Source of the DNA: Planctomycetota bacterium
GTDB taxonomy: Bacteria > Planctomycetota > Phycisphaerae > SM23-33
Direction: 5' to 3'
Assembly (NCBI GenBank): GCA_012729725.1
Contig: JAAYCO010000094.1
Location: 557-64,556 of the forward strand
Length of the DNA stretch: 64,000 bases
A program made the translations under genes and the position numbers. How positions within the stretch are numbered: position 1 is the stretch's first letter; each line of letters begins with the position of its first letter. The notes under the pieces are model-generated. The model did not search any database. It was not told where the DNA came from and saw nothing but the letters and a program-made list of their open reading frames with translations. Shown here in pieces: positions 4,828 to 43,286 of the stretch.

Positions 4828-4845
4828 ATATGCCCTAGCTTTTCC

Positions 4846-4873
4846 TTGACATGGGGCAAATATGTTATATAAA
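4846..4873 (+). promoter_or_regulatory. Sigma70-like promoter, TTGACA-16-TATAAA, between the convergent nadD and sod genes
   Basis: TTGACA at 4846-4851 and TATAAA at 4868-4873 are read directly. No annotated gene lies downstream on this strand. Confidence 0.25.
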
Positions 4874-4879
4874 GGAATG

Positions 4880-4968
4880 TGATGCTTAACGGTGAGGCTC
4901 CTCGGTCATTGCCCCTCCTTTGACCGAGTTCCGGCGTCAGGCTCCCCTCCCCTGACGCCGATTTTTTT
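4880..4968 (+). ncRNA. Candidate short (~90 nt) transcript running from the promoter to the intrinsic terminator
   Basis: Inferred only from promoter-plus-terminator geometry. There is no convincing peptide in it; the 85-aa track ORF 4892..5149 runs through the terminator into the sod antisense strand. Confidence 0.15.
4933..4968 (+). terminator. Rho-independent terminator with a perfect 9-bp stem ggcgtcagg/cctgacgcc, loop ctcccctcc, then gaTTTTTTTa
   Basis: Stem, loop and T-run are read directly. It lies 106 nt after the nadD stop and immediately after the sod stop on the other strand, where the hairpin alone may also serve. Confidence 0.55.
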
Positions 4969-4979
4969 ACCCCCAAATA

Positions 4980-5618
4980 TCATTCTGCGGTCTTTGTTGG
5001 CCTGTATCTCCCGGCCACGTGCGACCAATCGACCATTTCCAGGAAACTGTCCATCCATCTTGATCTGTTCTGGCCGTATACGGGCTGGTATGCGTGCTCC
5101 CACATGTCGCAAACCAGCAGCGGCTTTACGGGCCAGGCCTGGGCATTGATCAGCTCGCCTGTGTGAAAAATGATAAGCTTGCCGTCCGGCTGGTAGCCCA
5201 TTATGCCCCATCCCCGGCTGTCGATGCTGGCGCACAGCGACGCAAACAGCGTCACGGCCGAAACGACGGAACCATACTGCTGCTCCATGGCCTCGCCAAG
5301 ATTATCAGGGACTCTGGGCAGAGCCGAAGGAGAAAGCACCCGCCAGAACAGGCAGTGCATTGCGTGTTCCCAGGCCCATAGCGAGAGCGTTCGAGTCATG
5401 GCTCTGGGAATGCGGCCTTCGACGCACCATTGTTCATCCCTGGCCTGCTCGACCATGCGGTTGAGCATCGACACGATCTTGTTGTGTATGCCGTAGTGCG
5501 ACGCCAGCAATTCCTCAGGATACGCCTCGCCCAGTCCGTCAGGGGCGTAACCAAGCGGCGGCAGGGCGAAACGCCCCTCCTCGGCGGCGCCGATATCGCC
5601 GAACACCGACTCGATCAT
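4980..5618 (-). CDS. Fe/Mn-family superoxide dismutase. The track ORF extends to 5744, but the SOD fold begins near the internal Met in MIESVFGDIGAAEEGRFALPPLGY.
   Basis: FALPPLGYAPDGLGEAYPEELLASHYGIHNK aligns with the SOD N-terminal FxLPxLPYxxDALEPxISxxTxExHHxKHH region. DMWEHAYQ matches the C-terminal DVWEHAYY signature. The metal ligands appear conserved. Confidence 0.8.
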   Translation of the reverse strand: MIESVFGDIGAAEEGRFALPPLGYAPDGLGEAYPEELLASHYGIHNKIVSMLNRMVEQARDEQWCVEGRIPRAMTRTLSLWAWEHAMHCLFWRVLSPSALPRVPDNLGEAMEQQYGSVVSAVTLFASLCASIDSRGWGIMGYQPDGKLIIFHTGELINAQAWPVKPLLVCDMWEHAYQPVYGQNRSRWMDSFLEMVDWSHVAGRYRPTKTAE

Positions 5619-5879
5619 CTCCAGAATGTCCGGATACAGGTCAACGGTTCCTGTTGACGCCGACAGGCTCGACAGGCGCGCCACGCATGGCCTTCCATCG
5701 CTTGTGCCTGATACACGCACACACACGATAATTCCCTCCGGCATCCCCTTATTGGCTTCTACGGTGGCGGCTTGGGCTGGTGCGTTATGCCTTCATCCGA
5801 TTGTTCCTGTTCTTTGAATAGGCAAAACCCCTATGCCAATGATCCTCACAAGGGCGTCATTTCGTATAATGCAGTGATC

Positions 5880-7223
5880 ATGCAGAAACGTTCGGCAGTA
5901 CTGGAATCGCTTCGTGAGAAGGCCGCTCAATTGCCGGCCAGTCCTGGTGTGTATCTGTTCAAGGACGCCGCCGGGGTCGTGCTGTATGTCGGCAAGGCGA
6001 AAAACCTGCGAAGTCGCGTCGGCAGCTACTTTCAGCCATCCGCCGACCTTCTTGCCGCGCGCGGCCCGGACATCGAGCGGATGATCTCAAAGCTGGTCAT
6101 GGACATCGATTACCTTGAATGCGACAGCGAAGTAGACGCGGTTCTGCGCGAAAGCAGGCTGATAAAGGACATTCAGCCGCGGTTCAACGCCGCGATGAAG
6201 GACGACAAGAGCTTTCCCTATCTTCAAATAACGACCGACGAGGATTTTCCGCGCGTCGCGATAACACGCCAGCCCAGAACCAGCGGCGTGAAGCTCTATG
6301 GCCCGTTTGTGACGCCGGCGGACCTTCGGGCTTCATTGCCGCTAATGCAGCGCGTATTCAAGTTTCGCACGTGCAAGCTGGACATATTTGACGAAGACGA
6401 ATCGCGTCGCATGTTCCGGCCCTGCATATTGCACAACATCAAGCAATGCACAGCGCCGTGCGGTGCGCGAGTAAGCAGGGAAGATTACCTGCTCCAGATA
6501 CGGCATCTGCGGCAGTTTCTGGAATCGAAAGGCTCGCAGATTCGGCGCGAGCTGACCGAGAAGATGAAGTCTGCTGCCGCCGAACTGGATTTCGAACAGG
6601 CTGCGCGTTACCGCGACGAACTGCGGGCGCTGGAGGGGCTTCAGAAGCGCGGGCTTGTTCATGAGCATCTTCAGCCTGAGGTCTTCTACATCGACGCCAG
6701 CGAGGGGCTGGCCCGGCTGCCCGGCGTGCTTGGCGTTGAAGGCCCGGTGAGAACCATCGAGGGCATCGACATCGCCCACCTCGGCGGCCAGGAGCAGGTG
6801 GGCGCCCTGGTGTGCTTCATAGACGGCAAGCCGTTCAAGAGCGCTTACCGGCGATACCGAATCAAGACCGTGCAGGGGGCGGACGATTTCGCATCTATCC
6901 GGGAAGTTGTAAGCAGGCGATATAGACAGGCGGGCATGAACGAGGAGCTGTTCCCCGACGTCATCCTGATTGACGGGGGCAAGGGCCAGCTCTCGGCTGC
7001 GAGTCAGGCGTTCGACGGCCTCGACGCAAAACCCCCGGTGCTGCTGTCGCTGGCCAAGAAGGAAGAAGAGATATACGTCCATGGAAGCAAGGCGCCGATC
7101 AGACTTTCCAGGCACGACCCGGCCCTTCGCATTCTTCAGGCGGTGCGCGACGAGGCTCACCGCTTCGCGCAGCAATACCATCACATCCTGCGCAAAAAGG
7201 CCACTCTGGAGCAGGGCGAGTAG
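5880..7223 (+). CDS. uvrC: Excinuclease ABC subunit C, short form of about 447 aa. It has the GIY-YIG, UvrB-binding and RNase-H-like domains but no C-terminal (HhH)2 domain.
   Basis: GVYLFKDAAGVVLYVGKAKNLRSRVGSYF is the GIY-YIG motif. ARYRDELRALEG is the UvrBC domain. IDGGKGQL followed by RDEAHRFAQQYHHILRKK ends the endonuclease domain, and the ORF stops right after it. Start set at the in-frame ATG 5880 (MQKRSAV). Confidence 0.85.
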   Translation: MQKRSAVLESLREKAAQLPASPGVYLFKDAAGVVLYVGKAKNLRSRVGSYFQPSADLLAARGPDIERMISKLVMDIDYLECDSEVDAVLRESRLIKDIQPRFNAAMKDDKSFPYLQITTDEDFPRVAITRQPRTSGVKLYGPFVTPADLRASLPLMQRVFKFRTCKLDIFDEDESRRMFRPCILHNIKQCTAPCGARVSREDYLLQIRHLRQFLESKGSQIRRELTEKMKSAAAELDFEQAARYRDELRALEGLQKRGLVHEHLQPEVFYIDASEGLARLPGVLGVEGPVRTIEGIDIAHLGGQEQVGALVCFIDGKPFKSAYRRYRIKTVQGADDFASIREVVSRRYRQAGMNEELFPDVILIDGGKGQLSAASQAFDGLDAKPPVLLSLAKKEEEIYVHGSKAPIRLSRHDPALRILQAVRDEAHRFAQQYHHILRKKATLEQGE

Positions 7224-36973: not shown

Positions 36974-37068
36974 GCTTTCGCCCTTGTATCCGTCCCTAGA
37001 CGTGTTGAGAGCGTGCAGTTCATAACAAGCGATGCTTTTTGAATCATGTCTTCAGCAAGGAGAAAAGG

Positions 37069-37827
37069 ATGAATCGTAAGGTGAGTCTTTTGATGGTGAT
37101 GTGTGCTGTTGTCGCATGTTCAGCGATTGTGCAGGCCGAAGTTGTCAGTTTCTGGAGTTTCGAATCGATCGAAGGAGGAACAGTAATCAATGACCAGGTT
37201 GGCGGGGTGCATCTGACGCTCAGCGGTGGTGGTTATGGTTCAAGCATTGTTGGGGGGGGCCAACAGGCATTCGGCGATGGTGCTCTGAAATCCGGTGCGG
37301 GCTATTGTGCGACTGGTAACGCCAGTTCCTATTCACTTGATGCCGGCACGCTCATCTTCTGGATAAAGGATCAGAGTCACCTTCAGTACCAGCGTGTCAT
37401 GGCAACACATGTAAGGGGTTCAGCCGTGATGGACATCCAATGGAATCCTGACGGCCAATTGTATGTTCAGGGTATTCCTGGCCAGGGATCGATCAGCGGG
37501 TCTGCCGATTCGGCTATCGCCGATGGCGAGTGGCACAAGGTTGCCCTCACATACAGCAAGGCCGAGAACAAGACCCGGTTCTACGTGGATGACAAACTGG
37601 TCGGCCAGGGCGTATATGTGGGCGCCACCACCAACACAGGCTTCATTCATCTGGGCGGCTCGGGAAGCTACAGCACCAACGCAGGATGCTACCTGGATAA
37701 CGCATCCGTCTTTGACACCGCGCTTACGCAGGAAGAAATAACAAACTATGTTCCTGAACCAGCGTCGCTGACTCTACTGGCAGCGTGCGGGCTGATTGCG
37801 ACGGCTCGTCGCCAGCGCCAGAAGTAA
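37069..37827 (+). CDS. Secreted LamG/concanavalin-like domain protein with a C-terminal PEP-CTERM sorting signal
   Basis: MNRKVSLLMVMCAVVACSAIVQA is the signal peptide. EWHKVALTYS...TRFYVDDKLVGQ is the LamG-like jelly-roll. The C-terminus VPEPASLTLLAACGLIATARRQRQK is PEP, then a TM helix, then an Arg cluster. Confidence 0.7.
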   Translation: MNRKVSLLMVMCAVVACSAIVQAEVVSFWSFESIEGGTVINDQVGGVHLTLSGGGYGSSIVGGGQQAFGDGALKSGAGYCATGNASSYSLDAGTLIFWIKDQSHLQYQRVMATHVRGSAVMDIQWNPDGQLYVQGIPGQGSISGSADSAIADGEWHKVALTYSKAENKTRFYVDDKLVGQGVYVGATTNTGFIHLGGSGSYSTNAGCYLDNASVFDTALTQEEITNYVPEPASLTLLAACGLIATARRQRQK

Positions 37828-37920
37828 AAGAGTCTACACTGTTGAGTTTCATTGCAGGCATTCCGCAAACCCTGGGAGGCGCAAGTCTCCCAGGGTTGAG
37901 GGGCCGATGAGGATCAGGTT

Positions 37921-38649
37921 ATGTTCCAACGCGCCAGAGTTATCAAGCAGCCGCGACGGGATGCTGAAAGGGCAGGCCGAATCACCGGCAAGCATGGTTT
38001 CACGCTGATTGAGCTGCTTGTAGTAATCGCGATCATATCACTGCTGGTGTCGATGCTCATGCCTGCGTTGAAAAAGGCAAGAGAGCTTGCGTGGGCAACC
38101 GTCTGCGCAGGCAATCACAAAACCGTCGGCCTGGCGATATCCTTCTACGCCGAAGACCATAAACGATCCACACCAATTGGGTATGCTCCTGAAGTCGAGG
38201 CCAATTATCGCTGGCCGAATCTGCTTGCACAGCACCAGGGGCTAATCGACGAATTGTGGAAACTGCCGCGAATCTCACATCCGTTTGACTGCCCGGCAGT
38301 TGACACGACAGACAAGTACACCGAATTCACGATGAACACCGCGTTTGCCTCTCGAAACCGCAAAAAAGCAACCGTGCTGGACAACATTGTCTCGCCGGAG
38401 AATCTGCTTGCGCTATATGAAAGCGTGCCGGACTCGGCTAACCGTTACTGCGCGACCGTGCATTGGGCTTTTCCTCCCGTCGCATTCGACGGCGCCAACT
38501 ATGCGGAGGTTCGGCTGGCCCATGCGGGAATCGCCAACTTCCTTCTGGCCGATCTGCATGTGGAGCAGATTTCAGATGAATCAAGATACATGAACATTAA
38601 CTGGGTCTGGGAAGGGTTCTGGGAATTCTGGAATGCTCCAGGTGAATAG
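37921..38649 (+). CDS. DUF1559 protein: a type IV pilin-like N-terminal cleavage/methylation segment plus a C-terminal H-X9-D(G) domain
   Basis: [25 protein letters not shown] is a prepilin N-terminus. [20 protein letters not shown] matches the HxGGxNxxFxDGSV motif. Confidence 0.75.
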
Positions 38650-40369: not shown

Positions 40370-40951
40370 CTAAGCGTCTCCGAGCGGGAATCTGGCCAGC
40401 GGGCGGTATTGGGCGCCGGTTTGGGCGAGAATGCTGGCGCAGATGACGATCTCGTCGGCGTGCTGAACGCCGAGGTCCATGGAGGCCAGTTTCTTTGCCC
40501 GATTCCGCAGGCCTTCGGCGTCGCGGCAGGAATTGATCCTCGCCATGGTTACGTGCGGCAGATATTCCCGGACCTCCGACCGAAGGCCCATAGAGCCCAT
40601 CATGCCGTTAATGCTGTCCTGAAGCATGGCCAGCCTTCCGGTGGGGTCTTCGATATTGGCCCATATCATCCGCGGGCATCTGTGCCCTCCGGGCGGCTGA
40701 CATGTTACGCCCTTTAGCTGGAAATCGAACGGCTCGATCGCTTGGCATATCGGCCTGACCTCGCGGCAGATATCGGCCAATTGCTCGTCGTTCACGCTGC
40801 CGGCGAAGGCCAGGGTGACATGCAGATTCTCCCGCACAACCCAGCGTATTCCCTTATCGTCAACGCCGTCAACCAGCCTGCGACGGGCCTCTTCAAGACT
40901 GTCGAGCACCGCGTCATCCAGATCCAGCGCCAAAAAGGTTCGAGTAGGCAT
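40370..40951 (-). CDS. thpR: RNA 2',3'-cyclic phosphodiesterase of the 2H phosphoesterase family (LigT/ThpR-like)
   Basis: Two HxT motifs (HVTLAF and HVTMAR) in a ~190-aa protein. Start at internal ATG MPTRTFLALDL; the upstream leader is not homologous. Confidence 0.75.
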   Translation of the reverse strand: MPTRTFLALDLDDAVLDSLEEARRRLVDGVDDKGIRWVVRENLHVTLAFAGSVNDEQLADICREVRPICQAIEPFDFQLKGVTCQPPGGHRCPRMIWANIEDPTGRLAMLQDSINGMMGSMGLRSEVREYLPHVTMARINSCRDAEGLRNRAKKLASMDLGVQHADEIVICASILAQTGAQYRPLARFPLGDA

Positions 40952-41170
40952 TCTCTGAATTATACGTTGCGGCTGTGAGGGTGCCAAAGGCGGCAATGTG
41001 ACAGAAAAGGCCGCTTGAGGATGTGGCCCCTCATGGCCTTGGCATCTGTGCCCGCGCCGGGGATCATGCAAAGGCGATGATTCGGCCGTCTGAAGCGACG
41101 ATTTCATATCGCTTGGTGAGAGTTCGACAGAGAAAGATGGAATCCTCCAACGTCGTTAGGAATGTCTACA

Positions 41171-41971
41171 TCAGGAAAAAAGAGGAAGGCCTGATGCCGG
41201 CTTCTTGGGCGGATAGAAGAGGCCGATTACAAGCCACTGGTTCAGCGGATGACGTGTTCCAACGAAGAATCTCGTGTCTTTGTCAGGGCCGCAAAGATCG
41301 TCAAGAAACTTCTGTTTGACGCTCTGTACGGCTGCATTTTCACCTTTGGACTCTCTTTCACGAAGGAATAAGGCTCCTAATTCCCAGTCTTCCAGCAGGA
41401 GGCGATGCGGCTCTTTCTGATCCAAGCAGCGGAAAACGTAGTGAAAACGGAAGGGGATGCGGTGGAGAGGCTTTCTTTTGCCGAACAGGAGCGGTTGCGC
41501 CATACGAGCTTCGTGCTTGGGCGCCCATTTCTTCTCGCCCTCTGTCACTTCCAGATCCAGAACTTCAGCAGGCCGGATGATCCCGAGAGATGTCCGGTTA
41601 GCAACCCATTGCCGCATGAGCTCGGTCAATGTTCTGTGGGGCATCTTGTCGATAATGAGGCGGCGCGTTTCCCATGCGTTTGATCGGGGCAGAGGTTCGC
41701 CGATAAGGCGAATCGAGTTGACTTCCGGCTCGCGGCTTTCAGGGCGGGGATCATTTTGATAGCCGCGACGGGCAAGACCTATCTCCATCCACTGCCATTT
41801 CTTGTATTGCTTTTCGACAGGAAGGTATCGATAAGGGACGGGGTAGATTCGCAACCAATCCCCCGATTCAGTAACGGCTGCTGTGCATACCGTCTCGTCA
41901 TGCTTGTCCGACGGATTCGGGTATGTCTTGACGGTTACAAGAACCTTTGTCAGCTCAAAGTCAGCTCGCAT
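41171..41971 (-). CDS. Hypothetical 266-aa protein with no recognisable family. It is the second gene of a coupled pair on a lower-GC islet.
   Basis: Clean ORF whose ATG at 41971 overlaps the upstream gene by 22 nt. Local GC is about 53-55% against about 62% in the flanks, estimated by eye. Confidence 0.5.
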   Translation of the reverse strand: MRADFELTKVLVTVKTYPNPSDKHDETVCTAAVTESGDWLRIYPVPYRYLPVEKQYKKWQWMEIGLARRGYQNDPRPESREPEVNSIRLIGEPLPRSNAWETRRLIIDKMPHRTLTELMRQWVANRTSLGIIRPAEVLDLEVTEGEKKWAPKHEARMAQPLLFGKRKPLHRIPFRFHYVFRCLDQKEPHRLLLEDWELGALFLRERESKGENAAVQSVKQKFLDDLCGPDKDTRFFVGTRHPLNQWLVIGLFYPPKKPASGLPLFS

Positions 41972-42885
41972 TCTGCACCCCGGATATCCTGCACTGGAAG
42001 ACCTGTCTGTGAAGATACCACGGCGGCCAGTCGTGTTCTATGGCACATTGCCGGATCTGCCTCCATGCATAGCAGAACGCTCGGCTTGTCAGAAACGAGA
42101 TGGCTCACCTCAGCCACTGCATCCTGCCTACGTGGTAAAAGGCTGGTGGTATATTCATCGAAGAGCGATGCATAGTCATCATCGCTTTGCAGATCTTGGC
42201 GCAGTTCAGATGGAATCCCAAGCTCCGGGAAGTGAACATATTCAAGGGCAATCCTTGATGTCAGTCGGGTGAGTGTGGACTTGTGGAATCCGTATCTTCG
42301 GGCGACGGGATTCCTGCGAACATCAATTACTCTGACGATTCCTCGACGCATCAGAGTATTGAGAAGCTGATCCACGGACCATTGCTCGTATCCGACCGTG
42401 TAGACGGCACACTTGGCCAGTGGTCGCTTACTCAGTTTGCGAATGCTGCTGTTAGATGTGTACCAAGGGAACGCATCGTAGACGTAGTCAATTAATTGTT
42501 CAGACGTGCGGGAGACGAACCGCTCGACTACGCGCGCTGCGTCAGCACGCAGACCACCGGGCATATTACCGACGCGGGCATCAACCTCGGCTGCGCGAGC
42601 CCACGCCTCACGACCATCAGCTTTGGTATCGCGCAGGTAGCCGTTGCGCACCAAGTCGTCCGCTTCATGGAATAGCGCAAACGAAAACGGCCCGTACTTG
42701 TACGGCAGGAAATCGTAAAATGACGCTCCCCCATGCGATGGCGTTTCATGCGCAAGCAAAAAAGCCCATTTGGTCAGTTCCAAGTGGGTCACCGGGCGAC
42801 CAGCCAGTTCAACCATGTACAGCAGGCACTTTTGGCGATTGAGCACTCGATGTCTCTCAGATCGTTCTATTCCTATAGTAGTCAT
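41950..42885 (-). CDS. Fusion protein: an N-terminal Panacea/SocA-like (DUF4065) antitoxin-type domain plus a C-terminal DUF488 (YeaO-like) domain
   Basis: The N-terminal half has LNRQKCLLYMVELAGRPVTHLELTKWAFLLAHE...FYDFLPYKYGPFSFALFHEADDLVRNGYL, matching the KLLYLAD...FEAWKYGPV..LY pattern. The C-terminal half has VYTVGYEQWSVDQLLNTLMRRGIVRVIDVRRNPVARRYGFHKSTLTRLTSRIALEYVHFPELG, matching DUF488. Start taken at the ATG with a GGAAGG SD (MTTIGIE). Confidence 0.5.
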   Translation of the reverse strand: MTTIGIERSERHRVLNRQKCLLYMVELAGRPVTHLELTKWAFLLAHETPSHGGASFYDFLPYKYGPFSFALFHEADDLVRNGYLRDTKADGREAWARAAEVDARVGNMPGGLRADAARVVERFVSRTSEQLIDYVYDAFPWYTSNSSIRKLSKRPLAKCAVYTVGYEQWSVDQLLNTLMRRGIVRVIDVRRNPVARRYGFHKSTLTRLTSRIALEYVHFPELGIPSELRQDLQSDDDYASLFDEYTTSLLPRRQDAVAEVSHLVSDKPSVLLCMEADPAMCHRTRLAAVVSSQTGLPVQDIRGAECELTLS

Positions 42886-43286
42886 CGGCATGCCTTCCAG
42901 CAACGCTTGATAGAACCTCGCCAGAAAAGGGCTACTCCCTCGGCATATCCCGGCTCACATCGCAAGCCGTGGCGCAACCGATTCCGTCGGCGTGCGAAGG
43001 TTTAATTGTGTGATGCCTGATTGACTTTTTTGGCTTTCGAGCGTATAAACAGCGGAATGCTCGTTTTCACTCCAGACAACATGGCTGCCGTTTACATCGT
43101 TCGCCGCAAGGCTCACGGCCGGCGGTTCGCGGTTTGGCTGGTCAAGTTGCGCACCGTGCCCGACGGCTGCCAAGACTAGTTTTGGCAACGTGTGAGGCCT
43201 CTATAAACGCCGGGCTTGCGGCCTGATTCGATGTCCGGCATTCAACTACCCGCTCCGCAAAGCGAAGCATCCGTTTGGTGAATTTC

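Follow-up and report, generated by a model that had tools for sequence, protein, structure and literature searches.

A predicted dual-OB protein as the possible nucleic-acid-binding partner of a DUF488 protein in a planctomycetal copy of the candidate phage defence system PDC-M19

The 64,000-nucleotide (nt) stretch of DNA analysed here, referred to as the window, comes from a Planctomycetota bacterium (NCBI GenBank assembly GCA_012729725.1, contig JAAYCO010000094.1, positions 557 to 64,556) and carries on its reverse strand two overlapping genes, here named A and B. Gene B encodes a protein of 266 amino acids (aa), which a preliminary description of this DNA had put forward as the putative effector partner, of no recognisable family, of a 'Panacea-DUF488' protein encoded directly upstream. 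We tentatively favour another assignment, namely that the gene B protein binds nucleic acid as one subunit of a mobile conflict module of two genes, probably an anti-phage one, that the DUF488 protein encoded by gene A is its catalytic subunit, and that the module corresponds to the candidate system PDC-M19. The roles are distributed in this way because a catalytic fold is recognisable in A and a nucleic-acid-binding fold in B. The features concerned, of which the OB folds and the linker are taken from a structural model, are the following:

41171..41971, reverse strand: gene B, 266-aa predicted dual-OB protein; PADLOC PDC-M19B; PHROG 25907; at best a distant relative of Pfam DuOB
41702..41959, reverse strand: predicted OB fold 1 of gene B, residues 5-90, five strands (DSSP of the model)
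41597..41674, reverse strand: predicted helical linker of gene B, residues 100-125, two helices; conserved W100 and R103
41216..41584, reverse strand: predicted OB fold 2 of gene B, residues 130-252, topology from DSSP of the model
41950..41971, reverse strand: overlap of the gene A stop and the gene B start, 22 nt; TGA 41952-41950, ATG 41971-41969
41950..42903, reverse strand: gene A, DUF488 protein (PADLOC PDC-M19A); longest open reading frame (ORF) 317 aa, from TTG 42903
42004..42411, reverse strand: DUF488 domain of gene A, residues ~165-300; PTP/rhodanese-phosphatase-like fold
42424..42846, reverse strand: N-terminal domain of gene A, residues ~20-160; winged-helix-containing, DarG-C-terminal-domain-like

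Gene B belongs to a large family and overlaps gene A

In the ORF listing of the window, gene B is initiated by an ATG that sits within the last seven codons of gene A, and the two genes overlap out of frame. This overlap implies co-transcription and makes translational coupling downstream of the DUF488 gene probable, as had been supposed in the preliminary description; genes A and B are probably a conserved, co-translated pair. Gene B is a genuine gene, far beyond a chance ORF, since 780 homologues were found at E≤1e-3 in a 90%-clustered database (the best at 9e-180 with 98% identity) and a gene B profile retrieved 2,579 clusters (481 with E≤1e-30) from a 50%-clustered library. Nearly all of these clusters represent stand-alone proteins of 255-290 aa. 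The mean column identity in an alignment of 40 members was 64%, and the annotated start is supported by the fact that conservation in the family begins at the first Met. The family ranges over Planctomycetota, Acidobacteriota, Chloroflexota, Verrucomicrobiota and Actinomycetota (including Mycobacterium and Nocardia), and it is also encoded on plasmids of Pseudomonadota, Cyanobacteria and Sulfolobus, and in phages.

The statement that gene B belongs to no recognisable family is correct for Pfam and NCBIfam, neither of which gave a significant match, and a PDB sequence search with the gene B profile returned no match. The statement does not hold for PADLOC, where gene B matched the PDC-M19B model PDLC04508 at 1.7e-73 (residues 7-258 on profile positions 3-264 of 269), or for PHROGs, where it matched phrog_25907, a family of unannotated function, at 1.6e-44. 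PDC stands for 'phage defence candidate', a set of 145 single- or multi-gene cassettes embedded in BREX, DISARM and type I restriction-modification (RM) loci (Payne et al. 2024, bioRxiv 10.1101/2024.01.29.577857). PDC-M19 is cassette CAS_00089 (FAM_02799>>FAM_02993) in this set, with 174 occurrences and the entry 'Assign as candidate PDC-M19' (Payne et al. 2024, supplementary table). The earlier suggestion of a defence-type two-gene module is thus a reasonable one, as PADLOC lists exactly this A/B pair as the candidate PDC-M19. None of the papers found in a literature search named PDC-M19 or DUF488-N3, and those among them that mention DUF488 do not characterise the A/B pair.

Gene B is predicted to encode two OB folds

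An AlphaFold2 model of the gene B protein, built on a 40-sequence alignment, had a pLDDT of 90.9 and a pTM of 0.87. From this model the protein is predicted with high confidence to consist of two OB folds of the RPA/POT1/CST/HIN type. Residues 130-252 qualify as an OB fold by their order of elements, beta1-beta2-beta3-alpha-beta4-beta5, with beta1 at 136-144, beta2 at 174-181, beta3 at 189-193, helices at 196-226, beta4 at 234-240 and beta5 at 245-252. The N-terminal beta-rich segment and the C-terminal basic/aromatic segment that had been pointed out from the sequence were both recovered, the former as beta1-beta3 of OB fold 1 (residues 9-50) and the latter as beta2-beta3 and the helix start of OB fold 2 (residues 170-207). 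Foldseek aligned the model to tandem-OB proteins over 260-315 columns and showed its fold to resemble those of RPA, PriB, RecO and SSB. The duplication of the OB fold is visible structurally only, in the model; a comparison of OB1 with OB2 by hhalign detected no internal sequence repeat (probability 0.2%).

A link to dual-OB proteins that comes from sequence and is independent of the model is provided by DuOB (PF22557, 'Dual OB-containing domain'), which was the commonest weak Pfam match in the gene B family (17 of 119 diverse members, best 4.5e-5). The homologue from the Gordonia phage Nymphadora matched DuOB at 0.0021 with 18.6 bits, which is below the gathering score of 27 bits, and no reported member of the gene B family reached this score. 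For gene B of the window there was no match at E≤5, and among 40 scanned members that are close relatives only 2 matched, the best at 0.084. Two OB folds in one polypeptide are common to DuOB and the gene B model, and we regard gene B as encoding a dual-OB protein whose relationship to DuOB is distant at best and stays below threshold.

Residues of OB1 that are conserved throughout the family are K15, Y17, P18, E26, C29, R41, R48, K58, D74, R76, E78 and S79. Among 110 diverse members, R41 was conserved in 100%, C29, R76 and R103 in 99%, and D74 in 97%; W100, S128, D195-W196-E197 and G238 were conserved as well, together with C182 (80%) and H189 (81%). The aromatic and basic residues in this set fit nucleic-acid binding. 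A zinc site formed by C29/H112/C182/C227 was considered, but H112 and C227 are kept in the close subfamily only, while C29, C182 and H189 are conserved more widely.

No catalytic domain was recognisable in gene B by Pfam, PADLOC, NCBIfam, PDB or structural searches. A tandem OB fold of the ssDNA (single-stranded DNA)-binding kind that lacks such a domain speaks against the proposal that gene B is the effector, and the sole recognisable enzyme of the pair is the upstream DUF488 protein. We therefore propose, with some caution, that gene B may be the sensor or targeting part of the module.

Gene A combines a DUF488 domain with a putative DarG-like domain

Judged by its homologues, the true start of gene A is probably GTG 42846 or ATG 42885: the former matches MLNRQK, where most homologues begin, and the equivalent of the latter is used by one close homologue. 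An identical NCBI protein is annotated from ATG 42816 (288 aa), a start that would remove conserved residues. Gene A matched the PADLOC PDC-M19A model PDLC04505 at 5.2e-74 and phrog_14939, of unannotated function, at 6.9e-39. The DUF488 part of the name 'Panacea-DUF488' was borne out by the match to Pfam DUF488 (PF04343) at 3.7e-23 over residues 177-295, with 82.9 bits against a cut-off of 22.2. A sub-threshold match to the Pfam 'Active DUF488-N3 subclade' was also observed, and all 28 scanned homologues match both DUF488 and DUF488-N3. The invariant residues of gene A include T169-G171-Y172-E173, D194, R196, R202-R203, H207, C279, E281 and C287-H288-R289, where C279 ends a strand and is followed by the loop C279-x9-R289 (CMEADPxxCHR) and then by a helix. 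A PDB sequence search gave no match for the single sequence of gene A and only a chance ribosomal match (E 0.97) for its profile.

The Panacea part of the name was not borne out. PF13274 (SocA_Panacea/DUF4065) gave no match in gene A, 3 of 28 homologues matched it at E≥0.013, and it was present in the precomputed annotation of none of the 120 listed homologues. The closest likeness of the N-terminal domain appears to be to the DarT-binding C-terminal domain (CTD) of DarG, and the domain is at most a remote relative of Panacea. As a separate observation, one type I 'Specificity_I' model of PADLOC (PDLC03184) matched residues 42-160 of gene A at 3.6e-11 with its C-terminal ~120 positions, which suggests that some HsdS-like proteins may carry the same DarG-CTD/Panacea-like domain.

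The pair is conserved, but the partner of gene B varies

The conservation of the pair was examined in 80 gene B loci taken from one-genome-per-species contigs of at least 8 phyla, covering Planctomycetota, Acidobacteriota, Chloroflexota, Verrucomicrobiota, Poribacteria, Nitrospirota, Sumerlaeota and others. By tblastn, a homologue of gene A was present in 72 of these loci. In 70 of them it immediately preceded gene B on the same strand, and the end of its match fell anywhere from 18 nt within the gene B match to 54 nt ahead of it. DUF488 was likewise directly upstream of the gene B homologue in 10 of 10 IMG/VR contigs, with the N-terminal domain in 7 and without it in 3, and at locus L053 the partner is a DUF488-only protein. 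A DUF488-only gene is found convergent at the 3' end of gene B on Rhizobium pRL8, on a conjugative plasmid of Pseudomonas and in the phage Nymphadora.

In 8 of the 80 loci, mostly from Chloroflexi/Anaerolineae, a 165-190-aa ASCH-like protein (MIFAHTL..G.K.QTRRL) replaces DUF488. Its ORF overruns the gene B homologue by 100-190 nt in a different frame. ASCH was the top Pfam match in all five of these partners tested, each time sub-threshold (E 0.001-0.085), and the variant is covered by no PADLOC model. The ASCH-like partners are located as follows:

L024:5613-6170, forward strand: ASCH-like partner
L032:1642-2139, forward strand: ASCH-like partner
L037:5589-6104, forward strand: ASCH-like partner
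L044:5577-6092, forward strand: ASCH-like partner
L047:5613-6188, forward strand: ASCH-like partner
L049:5595-6140, forward strand: ASCH-like partner
L068:127-633, forward strand: ASCH-like partner
L071:5592-6149, forward strand: ASCH-like partner

The constant core of the module is gene B plus a small enzyme (DUF488, rarely ASCH-like), and the DarG-CTD-like domain is optional. The Panacea-based logic of the preliminary description is not supported, since gene B also pairs with DUF488-only and ASCH-like proteins that are devoid of the N-terminal domain. The same pairings indirectly disfavour the PanAT logic in which gene B would be toxic and neutralised by a Panacea protein.

Two further arrangements were seen. 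In a locus from Thermoguttaceae (L061:5641-6777, forward strand) the dual-OB match lies inside a 378-aa ORF, and an oppositely oriented gene of 744 aa separates it from a DUF488 homologue 2.7 kb upstream; this is a rearranged or fused variant. The Sulfolobus islandicus conjugative plasmid pSOG2 (L083) encodes a dual-OB homologue (4992-5858, forward strand; 25% identity, 96% coverage) followed by an overlapping gene for a 168-aa protein (5846-6352, forward strand) that has no significant DUF488, ASCH or other Pfam match. This protein may be a third kind of partner.

Genomic context

In the window, the pair is neighboured by thpR, a glycoside-hydrolase-like gene, typA/bipA, coaD and a deacetylase gene. 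The closest of these is:

40370-41107, reverse strand: thpR, RNA 2',3'-cyclic phosphodiesterase (ThpR/LigT), TIGR02258 at 8.9e-37

As listed, the thpR ORF has an N-terminal extension of ~52 codons. Its true start is probably near 40951 (MPTRTF...), because the family match begins at residue 56 and a promoter-like site (TTGGCA-17-TATAAT, 11/12 matches) is located at 40987-40959, just upstream of this position. A role of thpR as third gene of the module was ruled out, as none of the 80 related loci has thpR and the gene has its own promoter-like site. The same two findings bear on the idea that the pair serves as a housekeeping accessory of DNA repair or replication, with an SSB/RPA-like protein acting beside a repair phosphatase. 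This idea draws on the RPA-, PriB-, RecO- and SSB-like fold of the gene B model and on the adjoining thpR. Nevertheless, apart from the absence of thpR elsewhere, the phylum distribution of the family is patchy, its context is variable, and no SSB, PriB or RPA sequence-family match was obtained for gene B in Pfam, NCBIfam or PDB, so that we regard such a function as very improbable.

The variability of the context was apparent when two genes on each side of the pair were inspected in 37 loci: the 148 ORFs fell into 118 Pfam families, none of which occurred more than twice. A housekeeping enzyme family in a conserved context, which the preliminary description had named as the outcome that would speak against it, is not what these highly variable neighbours reveal. 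Type I RM subunits and methylases were near the pair in only a few loci (~2-4 of 37), and a defence-island context was seen neither for the window copy nor for most of the 37 scanned loci. Signs of insertion were absent from the window: no tRNA was present in 30-52 kb, the flanking repeats were short two-copy ones only, and no marked change in GC content was detected (0.53-0.55 in the pair, 0.55-0.60 in the flanks). Further away, at 37039-38649 on the forward strand, the translations include a 262-aa protein with a PEP-CTERM-like tail (VPEPASLTLL...RRQRQK) and a 242-aa protein whose N-terminal segment is of the prepilin type. Secreted or surface-type proteins like these are typical of Planctomycetota/Verrucomicrobiota.

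Homologues of gene B were also found on 23 plasmid records, 11 of them conjugative and including Sulfolobus plasmids, and the homologue on pRL8 is located near toprim/DUF3991 and helicase genes. In Nymphadora (NC_031061.1), the gene B homologue gp43 begins on the stop codon of gp44, the gene for the immunity repressor, whose end it thus overlaps, between integrase and cro. Convergent to it is gp42 (4834-5286, reverse strand), which is annotated as 'HipA toxin, toxin-antitoxin system?' but matches Pfam DUF488 at 1.2e-29. The integrase-cro region is expressed in lysogens, and prophage defence genes often occupy such a lysogen-expressed immunity region.

This distribution raises the question whether the pair serves the mobile elements themselves. 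An ssDNA binder and an end-processing enzyme could protect or mature the ssDNA of such an element while it enters by conjugation, replicates as a phage or integrates; alternatively, the pair could have an anti-defence function. The presence of the family on conjugative plasmids (also of Sulfolobus), in Gordonia phages, on IMG/VR contigs and in PHROG families is consistent with this possibility, as are the toprim/DUF3991 and helicase genes of pRL8. On the other hand, most of the 80 genome copies, that of the window included, are located among unrelated housekeeping genes with no recognisable element genes, PADLOC derived the pair from its embedding in RM and BREX loci, and the placement in Nymphadora with the immunity repressor is, in our interpretation, typical of a prophage defence gene. 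We therefore consider a service to mobile elements decidedly unlikely.

A possible mechanism and its alternatives

The assignment of the pair to a conflict module is supported by the linkage to DUF488 (70 of the 80 genome loci, all 10 IMG/VR contigs), by the changing surroundings of the pair, which occurs on chromosomes, on conjugative plasmids and in phages, by the derivation of PDC-M19 from BREX, DISARM and type I RM loci, and by the position of the Nymphadora copy beside an immunity repressor. In such a module, the gene B protein would bind to the ssDNA or the DNA ends of an element that invades or replicates, and would recruit the DUF488 enzyme to them. DUF488 could then process a terminal phosphate or sugar-phosphate, leaving DNA that cannot be replicated, ligated or packaged. 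The fold of the C-terminal domain of DarG has been reported to be an ssDNA mimic. By analogy, the DarG-CTD-like domain of gene A would dock on the gene B protein, where it might fill the DNA groove and keep the complex inactive as long as genuine ssDNA does not displace it.

Several points weigh against this proposal. The TM-score of the gene B model against tandem-OB proteins is only about 0.3, and RNA, proteins and sugars are bound by OB folds as well. For a passive binder gene B is unusually conserved, with the near-invariant C29 (99%) and the acidic residues E26, D74, E78, D195 and E197. Simple binding does not explain these invariant Cys and acidic residues, and judged by sequence conservation they hint at metal binding or catalysis. 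The window pair lies outside any defence island, among thpR, typA, coaD and glycoside hydrolase genes. The contact between A and B and the ssDNA-mimic idea are drawn by analogy only, DUF488 and its occasional ASCH-like substitute are not typical toxic effectors, and phage defence is a candidate function of PDC-M19 only.

The conserved polar residues could be accommodated by a DarTG-like toxin-antitoxin system. Gene B would then be an ssDNA-directed toxin, either a new OB-fold enzyme acting through its Cys/Asp/Glu/Arg set or an ssDNA binder that blocks replication, and gene A would be a dual antitoxin, whose DarG-CTD-like domain sequesters the gene B protein and whose DUF488 domain reverses its effect; elsewhere a DUF488-only or ASCH-like 'eraser' would suffice. 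Besides the invariant polar residues, the findings that gene B was never found alone and that its partners are eraser-like in nature are in favour of this arrangement. Yet neither a catalytic fold nor a known toxin family was detected in gene B by the sequence and structure searches, the convergent layout of B and DUF488 in plasmids and a phage is atypical for toxin-antitoxin pairs, and neither DUF488 nor its combination with Panacea occurs in the portion of the PanAT data searched (Kurata et al. 2022). A toxin-antitoxin system is thus possible but doubtful in our view. A more specific form, which we judge unlikely, is that gene B encodes a new OB-fold enzyme that modifies or covalently traps ssDNA by means of Cys29 together with Asp74, Arg76, Glu78, Ser79 and Asp195/Glu197. 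PDC-M19 would then perform a DarTG-like reversible nucleic-acid modification with interchangeable DUF488 or ASCH-like 'erasers' and, in some lineages, a DarG-CTD-like plug.

Significance

The window pair is one more copy of a catalogued candidate system, standing alone among housekeeping genes, and in this respect the result is a modest one. What is added here is a fold assignment for the gene B branch, the DarG-CTD-like domain, the ASCH-like alternative partner, the placement in a prophage immunity region and the conserved Cys/Asp/Glu set of gene B. PDC-M19 thereby gains a testable anatomy, consisting of a predicted dual-OB, ssDNA-binder-like protein, a phosphatase-fold DUF488 protein with an intact Cys/Arg loop and, in the lineage of the window, a DarG-like domain. 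The pair is widespread, with ~2,600 50%-identity clusters in many bacterial phyla, on archaeal and bacterial plasmids and in phages. If the proposal is confirmed, a role will be assigned to DUF488, a large orphan family with stand-alone members also in model bacteria, and the defence repertoire will gain a mechanism centred on DNA ends or ssDNA.

Comparison with known systems

The RapZ-C/DUF488/DUF4326 clade was reportedly predicted by Burroughs and Aravind in 2023 to include DNA-end-processing enzymes of virus-host conflict systems, and the Pfam families DUF488-N3a, PTP-NADK and DuOB presumably derive from that study. Among the tandem-OB binders, RPA70 DBD-A/B, POT1, TEBP-alpha, Teb1, CTC1 and RADX, as well as the HIN domains of AIM2 and p202, share with the gene B model two consecutive OB folds and align to it over the whole length. 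Gene B differs from them in that the identity is 4-14% and the TM-score about 0.3, that two helices form a long insert separating beta3 from beta4 in OB2, and that its invariant Cys/Asp/Glu set is atypical of such binders.

DarTG, whose antitoxin DarG is represented by PDB 7yk3, differs in that the pair has no ADP-ribosyltransferase and no macrodomain. Indeed, there was no DarT/ART match for gene B in Pfam, PADLOC or NCBIfam and no Macro match for gene A in Pfam. In the pair, gene B encodes the predicted OB-fold protein and DUF488 is the enzyme domain, and both the domain order, with the binding domain N-terminal, and the gene order are reversed relative to DarTG.

PanAT systems are conserved two-gene loci with at most 100 nt between the genes, and the order with the antitoxin (Panacea-like) gene first and its partner second is the commoner one (Kurata et al. 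2022). This contradicts the assumption in the preliminary description that Panacea antitoxins are usually promoter-distal. The pair resembles PanAT in being bicistronic and overlapping, with the gene for the putative binding domain first, and the distance between its genes, -18 to +54 nt in 70 of the 80 loci, falls within the PanAT limit. It differs in that gene A has no PF13274 match at threshold and that gene B also pairs with partners without the N-terminal domain. DUF488 and a Panacea-DUF488 combination are absent from those parts of the PanAT text and supplementary files that were searched (Kurata et al. 2022).

The closest counterpart is PDC-M19 itself, a bioinformatic candidate with no stated mechanism. 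PDC-M19 was defined within BREX, DISARM and type I RM loci, whereas the window copy is located among housekeeping genes. The products of the window genes match the PDC-M19A and PDC-M19B models nearly end to end, and, as in PDC-M19, gene A directly precedes gene B on the same strand.
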